From an uncultured virus (IMG/VR IMGVR_UViG_3300037400_005412) (taxonomy: Duplodnaviria > Heunggongvirae > Uroviricota > Caudoviricetes): 20,000 bases of DNA. The stretch is taken from the IMG/VR virus record IMGVR_UViG_3300037400_005412; one strand, written 5' to 3'. The notes below the pieces were generated by a model. That model saw only the letters and a program-made list of their open reading frames with translations, ran no database searches and had not been told where the DNA came from. Shown here piece after piece: positions 4,151-19,040 of this stretch. The position numbers and the translations under genes are program-made. Numbering within the stretch: the first letter of the stretch is position 1; each line of letters starts with the position of its first letter.

Positions 4151-4249
4151 AATTTCTAAAAAAAGTAGTTGACAAATAGCGCGTCCGGTGCTATAATACA
4201 ATCAGAAAGAGGGAAGGAAAACCCAACAAACCGGAAAGGAATTAGAAAA

Positions 4250-5915: not shown

Positions 5916-5959
5916 ACAGGTTGAGGGAAACCGCACTCGGGCAGGAGAGGGGAGAGACT
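5916..5959 (+). ncRNA. Candidate small RNA, GAGGGA-loop family, copy 1
   Basis: Promoter 5881-5909; GGTT-GAGGGA-AACC hairpin; no ORF before the next promoter. Confidence 0.6.
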
Positions 5960-6070
5960 ATCCAAAAGGTAACAAAAGAAAAACAAAAAATTTCTAAAAA
6001 TAACTCTTGACATTCGTCCGGACTTGTGGTATTATAATACCAGAAAGAGAAAAGAAAGGAAGTAAAAAAA

Positions 6071-7225: not shown

Positions 7226-7521
7226 AAAGCCACTTCTTTTTTTTTTTTTTTTTTTTTTGGTATTGACATTTGCGTGCGCATGTGCTATAATAGAATTGGT
7301 GCGTTTCTTTCGTCCAGGGGCTGTGGCGCAGGTTACAATATAGTGACAAATTTTTGCGAGATGTTACAAGAAATTACCCGGACTTGCGGCGTCCTAAAAC
7401 TGGTTACAAAATAATTACAAATCAGTGACAAAAAGTTTTTTTAATTTTTTTGAAAAAATGCTTGACAAATGCGCCCGGCTGTGGTATATTATAATCACAA
7501 AAGGAAAGGAGATAAAAAGAA

Positions 7522-8105: not shown

Positions 8106-8153
8106 ACAGGCGGAGGGACGCCCCACGCGGGAAGTCGAGGGGAGAGACTGACT
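8106..8153 (+). ncRNA. Candidate small RNA, GAGGGA-loop family, copy 2
   Basis: Promoter 8071; GGCG-GAGGGA-CGCC hairpin; no ORF. Confidence 0.6.
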
Positions 8154-8288
8154 TAATAGTTACAAAATGGTAACAAAAAAGTTTTTTCAAAAAAATCAAA
8201 AAAAAGCTTGACAAAATGCCCGGGCTGTGCTATACTACAATCAGAAAGAGGGAAGGAAAACCCCAATAAACCAGAAAGGATGAATAAA

Positions 8289-10500: not shown

Positions 10501-10548
10501 ACAGGTTGAGGGAAACCGCACTCGGGCAGAAGAGGGGGAGGACTGACT
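10501..10548 (+). ncRNA. Candidate small RNA, GAGGGA-loop family, copy 4
   Basis: Promoter 10466; GGTT-GAGGGA-AACC hairpin; near-identical to copy 1. Confidence 0.6.
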
Positions 10549-10653
10549 TTAAGTTACAAAACAGTAACAAATAGTTCCAAAAGAAAATTGTTGACATAAT
10601 ACAGTTGACATGCTATAATAATACCAGAAGTTAAGAAAGAGAGGAAAAAAGAA

Positions 10654-12575: not shown

Positions 12576-12624
12576 ACAGGCGGAGGGACGCCACACTCGG
12601 GTAGTAGAGGGGGAGGCTTTTTTT
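12576..12624 (+). ncRNA. Candidate small RNA, GAGGGA-loop family, copy 5
   Basis: Promoter 12541; GGCG-GAGGGA-CGCC hairpin; ends in a T-run. Confidence 0.6.
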
Positions 12625-12760
12625 ATTTGGAGAATGTGTGGGAGGTTGCCCGGGCGGCGGCAAAAGAAAAACAAAAAGTTACAAAAGAAAAACATTGACA
12701 AGTAACCAGAAGTATGGTATATTATAATCACAAAAGGAAAAGAAAAGGAGATCAAAAAAA

Positions 12761-13131: not shown

Positions 13132-13320
13132 ATGTTTATTGTTATTCTTAAAATTATCGCTGTTATTGCTGTCATTCGTTTCGTTGGTGGTGTGATCGAA
13201 ATAGTGATGAAAAATTTGTTTCTTGAAATTGAGTCAAGACGTTATGACAACGACCCTCAGCGCAAACAGAAGATCGAAGAAATGCGAAAAAGAATTGAAG
13301 AAAATTCAAAAAGGGCTTGA
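13132..13320 (+). CDS. Small membrane protein, 62 aa
   Basis: N-terminal hydrophobic helix and charged tail; TGA overlaps the next -35. Confidence 0.82.
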   Translation: MFIVILKIIAVIAVIRFVGGVIEIVMKNLFLEIESRRYDNDPQRKQKIEEMRKRIEENSKRA

Positions 13321-13375
13321 CAAAATAGCCCCTTTATGATACAATACCAATAGAAACAGAAAAGGAGAAATAAAA

Positions 13376-13495
13376 ATGATGTATGACATTTATCCCTGTG
13401 ATCTCGATCCCTTTGGCGAATGCCCGAAGCGGTGTCAGGACTGTGCCCATTGTGTGGGCTGGTTCATGGATGAACCAGAGGACGAAGAAAATTAA
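13376..13495 (+). CDS. Cys-rich acidic micropeptide, 39 aa
   Basis: MMYDIYPCDLDPFGECPKRCQDCAHCVGWFMDEPEDEEN; promoter 13317, AAGGAG RBS. Confidence 0.78.
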   Translation: MMYDIYPCDLDPFGECPKRCQDCAHCVGWFMDEPEDEEN

Positions 13496-13538
13496 AAAAG
13501 GTCTTGACAGGACGCAAATCCTGTGATATAATAAAGAT

Positions 13539-13810
13539 ACAAAAGGGGAAGGAAAACCCCACAAACCTCTGAGCTGGCCCAGCGAAATGGTACAGAGTGA
13601 GCATGAACACTTTGTCAAAAAATGCCGTGAACTGTGAATGAGAAATAGCAGGTGAGGTTAAGGTCTTACAGCACACCGCCGACCAAGACGCGAAAGGGCG
13701 GGAGTGGGAGAGCAAACTCCCAAACAGAACACAAAACCGTGAGAGCGAGAGAGACACGAAATAACCGCTCAGGATGGCAACCTTAAACCCCCGCTGTGAG
13801 TGGGGTTTTA
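13539..13810 (+). ncRNA. Candidate ~270-nt structured non-coding RNA, family not recognised
   Basis: Promoter 13504-13532 and terminator ~13785-13810; no RBS-led ORF; several local and long-range complementary segments. Confidence 0.6.
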
Positions 13811-13884
13811 AATAACCAAAAAAAGGTCTTGACAGGATGTAAATCCTGTGCTATAATAAAGACACAATAAAGGAGATAAAAACA

Positions 13885-13965
13885 ATGAAAGCACGACCGC
13901 CGCCCACAAGGGCATGTGATTGGATTACTAGTAATTAGATGGTAATGTATAGGAGAATAGACTAA
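13885..13965 (+). CDS. Micropeptide MKARPPPTRACDWITSN(*/Q)MVMYRRID: 17 aa in code 11 or 26 aa in code 15
   Basis: Promoter 13829, AAGGAG RBS, ATG 13885, in-frame TAG at 13936, TAA at 13963 overlapping the next ATG. Confidence 0.55.
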
Positions 13966-14188
13966 TGAATAGAATCAGAGACGAGACGTAAAACCTGATA
14001 ATGATAGTATAATGATGGAATAGAATGATAGTAATAAAATAGAATAAAGGCAAATGTCAAGAGGCGGCTCGGTTGGAGGTTGGGAGTAGCCGAAAAAATT
14101 TTTCAAAGAAATTTGAAAAACCCTCTTGACAAATCGCCCGAGCTGTGGTAATATATAATCACAAAGAGAAAACAAGGAGGAAAACAAA

Positions 14189-18711: not shown

Positions 18712-18811
18712 GAGCCAAGTCACCCAGACAAAATGCCTTGTTAAAAAAATATCAAAATAAAATTCAGAATGCCCTCTTGACAAAATAAGTTAAGTATGGT
18801 ATAATGAATAC

Positions 18812-18900
18812 AGTTAAGAGGACAGAGCCGAAAGACTTTAAGATTGACCGAATCTGGTTGAAATAACCTAGTAGTTAGAGGATAAAAAATCAATCAAATG
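18812..18900 (+). ncRNA. Candidate small structured RNA upstream of the tRNA
   Basis: Promoter 18777-18805; no ORF; consecutive hairpins AGAGCC-GAAA-GACTTT, AGATT-gaccg-AATCT, GGTT-gaaat-AACC. Confidence 0.4.
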
Positions 18901-18953
18901 CCCTCTTGACAAACTCCAAAAAGTATGCTATAATATAAATGTAAATAAGACAT

Positions 18954-19040
18954 GCGTGGATGCTGGAACTGGTATACAGATTGGTCTTAAAAACCAATGC
19001 CCAAATGGGATTGGGGGTTCGATTCCCCTCCCACGCACCA
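18954..19040 (+). tRNA. tRNA-Leu (anticodon TAA), CCA encoded
   Basis: Acceptor GCGTGGA/CCCACGC (A7-C66 mismatch), D-loop GG, anticodon arm TTGGT-CTTAAAA-ACCAA, long variable arm, GGGGG-TTCGATT-CCCCT T-arm, ACCA end; own promoter at 18906. Confidence 0.93.

Follow-up and report, generated by a model that had tools for sequence, protein, structure and literature searches.

INTRODUCTION

The phi29-type pRNA (Rfam RF00044) is a structured packaging RNA that is transcribed from an early promoter and is both essential and universal in its phage group. Type III antitoxin RNAs (ToxI-like) and their phage mimics consist of ~36-nt tandem repeats and could neutralize a host defense protein. At the level of mRNA, 5'-proximal purine-rich SD-like elements are said to block 5'-to-3' decay. 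Two 5' mRNA stabilizers have reportedly been described in Bacillus, namely STAB-SD, credited to Agaisse and Lereclus in 1996, and the polypurine stabilizer, credited to Hue, Cohen and Bechhofer in 1995. A preprint reports that phages also carry genes for RNA anti-CRISPRs (Racrs) and for viral sgRNAs, each with its own promoter and terminator (bioRxiv 10.64898/2026.06.01.729453).

The usual reading of a large phage's early region is a row of tiny orphan proteins. We analyzed a 20,000-nt stretch of DNA from an uncultured virus (IMG/VR IMGVR_UViG_3300037400_005412), which is termed the window throughout, and focused on a cassette whose predicted transcript spans ~270 nt from position 13539. Among the modules of this early region, one appears to be an RNA gene, with gain and loss in the manner of an anti-defense gene. 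The candidate resembles pRNA as a phage-encoded, predicted structured RNA of comparable size with an early promoter and differs from it in being optional and in matching no Rfam model.

RESULTS

The cassette lies in the promoter-rich early region of a gut phage

The phage to which the window belongs is a large, uncultivated member of the Caudoviricetes from the gut (rumen-type), and the window represents its early region. With a cutoff of 11 of 12 consensus matches, 43 promoters were counted on the plus strand of the window and five on its minus strand. Between 11000 and 16500, 32 promoter-like sites were found, compared with 14.7 +/- 4.4 in shuffles. SD-led ORFs of 17-145 codons stand behind most of the window promoters. 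Of 14 ORFs compared with PHROGs, a single one had a match (deoxyribonucleotidase-like), and this marker protein has relatives in 46 IMG/VR loci on contigs of up to 240 kb. Megablast of the whole window retrieved no close deposited phage genome. The sequencing runs that contain the window stretch are mostly labeled as bovine or other animal gut metagenomes; runs with only a small share of the stretch were given no weight for habitat.

Several other units of the window deserve description in their own right. A tRNA-Leu(UAA) with a long variable arm is located at 18954-19040 behind its own consensus promoter (unit 18906-19040), and just 5' of this unit, at 18777-18905, a promoter is followed by ~95 nt without an SD-led ORF. 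Likewise, a promoter leads into ~165 nt without an SD-led ORF at 7298-7461, and the next promoter follows at 7462. A short ORF-less unit is present in five copies (5916-6006, 8106-8207, 10501-10590 and 12576-12694 on the plus strand and ~4507-4400 on the minus strand), each with its own strong promoter on the 5' side and another promoter directly 3'. The consensus of the five copies, ACAGG[YK]GAGGGA[MR]CC.CAC.CGGG.AG..GAGGGG.., includes a hairpin with an SD-like loop (GAGGGA) and a covarying stem (GGUU/AACC vs GGCG/CGCC). This five-copy unit is possibly a second family of small phage RNAs.

The cassette combines a promoter, a generic leader, a unique body and a terminator

The candidate and its immediate flanks contain the following features.

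13494..13556, plus strand: left copy of a 63-nt direct repeat (promoter and leader start), from the repeat search
13504..13532, plus strand: promoter of the sigma-70/sigma-A type, TTGACA-17-TATAAT with a TG extension, 12/12 matches
13539..13566, plus strand: generic 5' leader with the hairpin GGGG-AAGGAAAA-CCCC (13545-13560; GGGG 13545-48/CCCC 13557-60), then ACAAACC, from the sequence and leader comparison
13567..13597, plus strand: stem-loop CUCUG/CAGAG (CTCTG 13567-71/CAGAG 13593-97 in the DNA) with an inner GCUG/CAGC stem (13573-76/13580-83), from the sequence
13575..13775, plus strand: stretch found in contigs of two RNA-library runs, from contig alignment
13598..13622, plus strand: variable A-rich linker with six variable positions
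13623..13779, plus strand: multi-hairpin domain (~157 nt) with the closing helix TGCCGT 13623-28/ATGGCA 13774-79, from MFE, RNAalifold and variation
Stems inside this domain, plus strand: CTGTGA 13632-37/TTACAG 13666-71; CCGCC 13676-80/GGCGG 13697-701; GGGAG 13706-10/CTCCC 13717-21; CGTG 13738-41/CACG 13755-58
13639..13641, plus strand: TGA stop that only the window copy carries, interrupting the single long sense frame, from variant comparison
13789..13812, plus strand: intrinsic terminator, hairpin 13789-13805 followed by a short U run (TTTT), from the terminator scan
13819..13881, plus strand: right copy of the 63-nt repeat, which is the promoter of the next unit, from the repeat search

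The two repeat copies that flank the cassette are 84% alike and are spaced by 325. The transcription start near 13539 was derived from the promoter spacing. An earlier note on this DNA, made from the letters alone, had described a GC-richer transcription unit with its own promoter and terminator, six local stems and no RBS-led ORF. The sequence, read directly, contains all six stems and both long-range pairs that the note had described as crossing (TGAGC 13598-602/GCTCA 13767-71 and the closing helix of the domain). The promoter and the terminator-like hairpin are both in place, with ~270 nt between them. The GC content of the unit is 0.48-0.49 compared with 0.29-0.41 in the bins just 5', and the interval between the cassette promoter and the next promoter contains no SD-led ORF. 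The note had not recognized the RNA family, in agreement with our comparison with Rfam 15 (4227 models). At gathering scores, the only hit in the whole window was a tRNA at 18954-19037; at E<=10, the region 13400-13950 yielded three hits with E values of 7.3-8.4, all at 13798-13887 and none in the candidate body. The observation of the earlier note is confirmed, and its features are modestly beyond chance.

What is specific to the cassette is only the GC-richer body at 13567-13788, as the leader is common to many gene cassettes. The leader ends at ACAAACC (13566), and the unique body stands in place of an SD and an ORF. Equivalent leader hairpins are found 5' of the SD-led genes at window positions 4210, 5411, 8249, 10184 and 10783. 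Among 328 occurrences of the loop word in related loci, 147 form leader-type hairpins, which are distributed over 30 of 48 records and display at least 15 complementary stem variants; 109 of the 147 are followed by the SD sequence AAACC[AG]G[AG]AAGG. The leader motif has an invariant loop, AAGGAAAA, and a freely covarying stem (GGG/CCC, GUG/CAC, GAG/CUC, UUG/CAA and others), and its 3' side continues into AAACCAGAAAGG (SD) and then a start codon, as exemplified by L002 at 10936, L006 at 12114 and L032 at 10817. Within the window, the motif matched no Rfam family. This 5'-UTR leader motif is possibly a 5' stabilizer or a translation enhancer.

The cassette is optional among close relatives

The nearest relative, L001, shares 80% amino-acid identity in the marker protein and lacks the cassette, a feature that the earlier note had missed. 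L001 aligns to the window at 13299-13557 and 13818-14044, and contains one promoter where the window contains two. The 325 bp that comprise the promoter copy, body and terminator are absent from it. Both forms are found in DNA run X2. One contig includes the cassette (13453-13874, depth 21.5), and a second, joined form (depth 12.1) leads from 13501 to 13845, with a promoter like that of L001 between them in place of the cassette. Among close relatives, the cassette is optional.

A second DNA copy, L048, was found by a 20-mer scan of JGI metagenome contigs. The cassettes of the window and L048 are 93.5% identical over 340 nt, with 210 of 221 body positions (95%) in common. The adjacent 39-aa gene is identical at 83 of 120 positions (69%), and the other shared genes are 66-80% identical. 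The promoter is as conserved as the body between the two, so the high identity may reflect recent horizontal spread instead of selection on the RNA. In L048, the terminator hairpin retains its stem but has an altered loop, and a different gene comes after the cassette.

Further copies were recovered through the opposite strand. An antisense ORF (13464-13757, minus strand), used as a query, retrieved eight clusters and three further members, which correspond to 11 protein records. These 11 public 'hypothetical proteins' (138-281 residues; homologues P0001-P0013) result from reading through the cassette and the promoters on either side of it in antisense. Gene finders call the antisense ORF because the purine-rich plus strand leaves the minus strand without stops, and the 'hypothetical proteins' are gene-calling artefacts. 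Sequence 5' of the body differs from that of the window in P0003 and P0008, of which P0008 resembles the second, upstream promoter region of L048; given these differing 5' contexts, the body seems to move as a module.

Altogether, the thirteen copies outside the window occur in differing contexts and all retain the full body, and all copies are ~90% or more alike. As far as these sequences tell, the family is narrow and consists of close copies only. The antisense-ORF profile, searched against 1.84 billion representatives, returned three known clusters and two weak promoter/leader hits and nothing more distant. No homologue beyond L048 emerged from blastn against 50,697 phage records, a plasmid search or megablast with the whole window. 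The transcript gave no nhmmer hit in 46 related viral loci, and a DNA search of the whole records behind L001, L005, L008, L011 and L012 found the cassette in none of the five. Covariance model R1, applied to 49 sources, placed only the window and L048 above noise (next best, 13.5 bits), and tblastx of the body against 49 loci, in which a decayed gene was sought, gave only L048 below E 0.4. Pattern scans of viral contigs with a 20-mer and with a 25-mer that included variable position 13713 had no hits, two 20-22-mer scans of 185,579 species genomes detected no copy in host genomes, and a related-locus search with the 110-aa neighbor found none. L049, a candidate from the metagenome scan, has only the 20-mer in common with the cassette and was dismissed as a chance match.

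The neighborhood of the cassette contains three further units of note. Adjoining the cassette site, 13376-13495 encodes a 39-residue Cys-rich peptide with the pattern C..C....C...C..C..C, which is kept beside the site in the window, L001 and L048. Between the window and L001, this gene has accumulated 10 synonymous and two non-synonymous changes, indicating clear purifying selection. The unit on the 3' side, at 13864-14125, is ~85% conserved in L001 and is missing from L048. Its 17-codon SD-led ORF (MKARPPPTRACDWITSN) is followed by ~190 nt rich in A, T and G, in which there are AATAGAAT/ATGATAGTA repeats (TRF arrays at 13998-14048), and by a terminator-like hairpin. L048 itself contains a second ORF-less cassette directly 5' of the RNA cassette (3392-3230, minus strand), with its own promoter, a leader hairpin GGG-AAGGAAAA-CCC and only a 6-codon ATG frame. 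The ~130 nt after that leader are unrelated to the candidate body.

Sequence variation partly supports a conserved fold

The plus strand folds with an MFE of -78.5 kcal/mol (z = -2.42), which was equaled by one of 200 dinucleotide shuffles. The minus strand has a z-score of -0.79, and 39 of 200 shuffles were as good. A single sequence does not prove individual stems because the stems are short and the RNA is purine-rich, with 14 GAG triplets and many alternative partners. Between the window and L048, a comparison based on real DNA only, 13 of the 17 differences lie outside the 46 pairs of a hand-built model, and three of the four inside keep pairing. The other variants were mostly deduced from amino-acid changes in the antisense ORFs, in which antisense-silent changes are invisible and two-step changes were resolved by parsimony.

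Two helices are kept by this variation. The long-range helix 13623-28/13774-79 is present in both the MFE and RNAalifold structures, varies at 13625, 13774 and 13775, and retains a standard pair in nine of nine changed cells. Helix 13676-80/13697-701 displays a compensatory G-C to A-U change in P0002 and P0013 as well as U.G wobbles, and it has an A.C mismatch in P0008. In stem 13632-37/13666-71, the 13670 A>G change keeps a U-G pair, and 13666 U>C (P0005) creates an A.C at 13637-13666 or 13655-13666. Four stems in all never vary, including those at 13706-21 and 13738-58. The covariation is thin, with one compensatory pair and otherwise wobbles, because the copies are ~90% or more alike.

Other pairings fare differently. 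The MFE hairpin 13592-99/13608-15 is wrong, as it is broken in eight cells by variation of the linker at 13598-13622 (variable positions 13605, 13607, 13613, 13615, 13616 and 13621). The alternative CUCUG/CAGAG stem-loop at 13567-97 is uncontradicted; its stems are invariant, and what varies in it are loop positions (13577, 13591 and 13592). The earlier note had proposed that the two crossing long-range pairs form a pseudoknot. This pseudoknot is not supported because helix 13598-602/13767-71 in L048 retains one changed pair and loses another through a C-G to C.A break. The partner of 13766-71 is ambiguous; of four candidates, L048 disrupts three and leaves 13595-99 intact. A loop-tail kissing pair between UUAAGGU at 13658-64 and ACCUUAA at 13781-87 was rejected, as the loop is altered in L048 and no compensating change accompanies it.

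The variation-consistent structure has a free energy of -55 kcal/mol (-63.7 when completed) versus -78.5 for the MFE structure. We propose a model that would consist of the leader hairpin, the stem-loop 13567-97, the A-rich linker, the multi-hairpin domain 13623-13779 and the terminator. Support for a conserved fold from sequence variation is partial and comes from the two helices. The structured-ncRNA interpretation of the earlier note is partly supported: the cassette forms a unit of its own, lacks a credible reading frame, matches no Rfam family and encloses contigs from RNA libraries, and two helices in the note's scheme are kept by variation. Its first stem, at 13545-60, is the generic leader hairpin, and its pseudoknot finds no support.

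The sense frames lack the hallmarks of the phage's protein-coding cassettes

Does the cassette encode a small protein? All three sense frames carry stops in the window copy. The TGA that interrupts the only long frame is found in the window copy alone, which the earlier note had not noticed; position 13639 is C in all 11 antisense-ORF proteins, in L048 and in all four runs compared. In L048 and, per the inferred changes, in P0001-P0008, sense frame 1 is uninterrupted over 13573-13761; among the copies compared, all but that of the window are open for 64 codons. Between the window and L048, frame 1 has one synonymous and seven non-synonymous changes, and the random-transition expectation is 33% synonymous. 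This 1:7 ratio differs from the 10:2 ratio of the 39-aa neighbor against L001 (Fisher p = 0.0045). No SD precedes an in-frame GTG, TTG or ATG of frame 1, whereas nearly all cassette genes of this phage have AAAGGAG or GAAAGG 6-10 nt upstream of the start. The ATG at 13603 is lost in L048. Two sense-strand ORFs were tested against Pfam and PHROGs and matched no family, and in a 44-codon GTG ORF of frame 2, seven substitutions changed seven residues. The cassette thus lacks the combination of an SD, an open frame and a synonymous excess that marks the small protein-coding cassettes of this phage. Of the generic features of a stand-alone ncRNA gene, it has its own promoter, an intrinsic terminator and no translatable ORF. 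The antisense strand was rejected as the product because it has no promoter, folds with a z-score of -0.79 and has an ORF that crosses the plus-strand promoters.

RNA-library contigs give a weak hint of expression

Traces of expression were sought in Logan contigs, which display neither strand nor ends. Two RNA-library runs from different studies contain the cassette. Run X19 has a 201-nt contig at 13575-13775 with two differences, and run X21 has a 197-nt contig, of which 196 nt align at 13579-13774 with eight differences. Both contigs lie wholly inside the unit and have no loose ends, and the DNA contigs of X2 and X3 continue past the positions at which the X19 and X21 contigs end. The flanks at 13393-13547 and 13889-14012 have no cover in the RNA-library runs, which was not counted as evidence. 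Presence in an RNA library does not by itself amount to transcription, as DNA can occur in RNA libraries, and these contigs are a weak hint that the cassette is expressed. The contig midpoints, 13675 and 13676.5, coincide with that of the predicted transcript (13675.5), as would be expected if low-depth ends of a 13539-13812 RNA were lost symmetrically; processed ends near 13575 and 13775 would be an alternative.

DISCUSSION

We propose that the cassette, one of dozens of small early modules with a consensus promoter each, is probably the optional gene of a stable, trans-acting, early functional ncRNA in this large uncultivated phage. Transcription by the host RNA polymerase would begin near 13539 and end at the hairpin 13789-13805, producing an untranslated transcript of ~270 nt. 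By analogy with Bacillus 5' stabilizers, the RNA would be shielded at one end by the generic 5' hairpin and at the other by the terminator hairpin and would accumulate. The RNA would then act in trans early in infection on a host protein or RNA. The optional distribution among near-identical phages resembles that of accessory host-takeover or anti-defense genes, and the cassette may come and go among close relatives because it is useful only in some hosts. A tentative but most economical reading of this activity is that the RNA serves as a decoy or titrating partner of a host protein or RNA. No extended complementarity to the RNA was found in the window or in five related phage records, which makes a long phage-encoded antisense target unlikely.

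What could such a decoy bind? The RNA is enriched in GAG (14 compared with 7.2 expected, 0 of 1000 shuffles) and in GUGAG (4 compared with 0.6, 2 of 1000 shuffles). GGA is not in excess (5 compared with 7.4 expected; 948 of 1000 shuffles have as many), which argues against a CsrA/Rsm-type sponge. A TRAP-like (G/U)AG array was rejected on account of the irregular spacing of the GAG triplets. The loop AGAGCGAGAGAGA at 13742-13754 is invariant and purine-rich and contains an (AG)3A run, a motif bound by Bacillus Hfq. In a more speculative version, to which we give rather little credence, the cassette would be an 'RNA moron'. Phages of this group would swap this early and highly expressed decoy by recombination at near-identical promoters, and invariant purine-rich loops such as AGAGCGAGAGAGA would titrate a host RNA-binding protein or defense sensor. 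If true, it would serve in counter-defense or host takeover without any protein, for which CRISPR mimics are the only precedent described.

The functional ncRNA has to be weighed against a functionless origin and against translation. The cassette could be transcribed filler, such as the remnant of a gene without its SD and start, that lies between recombination-prone promoters and spreads passively. The body starts exactly where the leader would continue into an SD, other ORF-less units exist in the window and L048, and the equal conservation of promoter and body between the two is what recent transfer would give; moreover, the cassette is dispensable, and covariation is thin. We nevertheless regard filler as unlikely, since tblastx against 49 loci revealed no intact gene relative (only L048 below E 0.4), the thirteen non-window copies keep the full body in differing contexts, two helices retain their pairing where they vary, once through a compensatory change, and the plus strand folds better than shuffles. 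A small protein is decidedly improbable. It would be a charged peptide of 55-64 residues that runs in frame 1 from GTG 13597 to TAA 13762, with the window copy as a pseudogene (TGA 13639). Such a protein would account for the open frame in L048, the inferred-open frames in P0001-P0008 and the C at 13639 outside the window, and two changes, 13713 C>T and 13659 T>C, would leave the encoded peptide unaltered. However, the in-frame starts have no SD, unlike those of nearly all cassette genes, ATG 13603 is lost in L048, and the 1:7 ratio is near the random-transition 33%, unlike the 10:2 ratio of the neighbor. By our estimate, an open frame of this length is not unusual at 14% T. Furthermore, the peptide matched no Pfam or PHROGs family and would cover only 165 of the ~270 conserved bases.

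Two further alternatives assign the RNA a different function. As a cis-acting leader or transcription control (an antitermination or read-through device or an insulator), the cassette would govern the downstream units, and it does lie directly upstream of another unit, with a weak-tailed terminator of four U. This role is very improbable given that the downstream unit has its own 12/12 promoter and exists without the cassette in L001 and run X2, that a different gene lies downstream in L048 and that no riboswitch or leader family was matched. We assign the smallest likelihood, bordering on negligible, to a CRISPR-derived decoy, either a solitary-repeat RNA anti-CRISPR or a viral sgRNA or tracr-L-like RNA. 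The preprint reports such phage RNAs with their own promoter and terminator, including a tracr-L of ~211 nt (bioRxiv 10.64898/2026.06.01.729453), and the cassette is accessory, as anti-defense genes often are. Against this origin, the body has no CRISPR-DR or tracrRNA family match at E up to 10 and no internal repeat, its sole long-range helix of 6 bp is far below a repeat:anti-repeat duplex, and no host genome among the 185,579 species genomes covered by the two 20-22-mer scans contained a copy.

If the ncRNA is functional, an RNA-only accessory factor would be added to the host-takeover tool kits of phages, and recombination between promoter repeats would move RNA genes besides protein genes. 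The immediate impact is limited because the family is narrow and the phage is uncultivated.

How does the candidate relate to the described systems? Its first 28 nt form a 5' hairpin with the purine-rich SD-like loop AAGGAAAA, like the Bacillus stabilizers, and this suggested likeness is limited to the generic leader and does not extend to the unique body. Similar to ToxI mimics, it is a phage-borne ncRNA that could neutralize a host defense protein, but unlike ToxI, it has no tandem repeat in 13539-13812, as TRF detected arrays only at 13998-14048. A further parallel is with Racrs and viral sgRNAs as portrayed in the preprint: the candidate is likewise a small phage ncRNA gene with its own promoter and rho-independent terminator that is accessory and plausibly directed at a host factor. 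Unlike them, its body has no match to a CRISPR-repeat or tracrRNA model, no repeat unit and no co-located known anti-defense gene, and its ~270 nt and multi-hairpin domain contrast with the 89 nt and sgRNA shape of the viral sgRNA. The candidate lacks those defining features of the compared RNAs that were tested, and we file it as a new family within a known kind, the phage-encoded stand-alone ncRNA.
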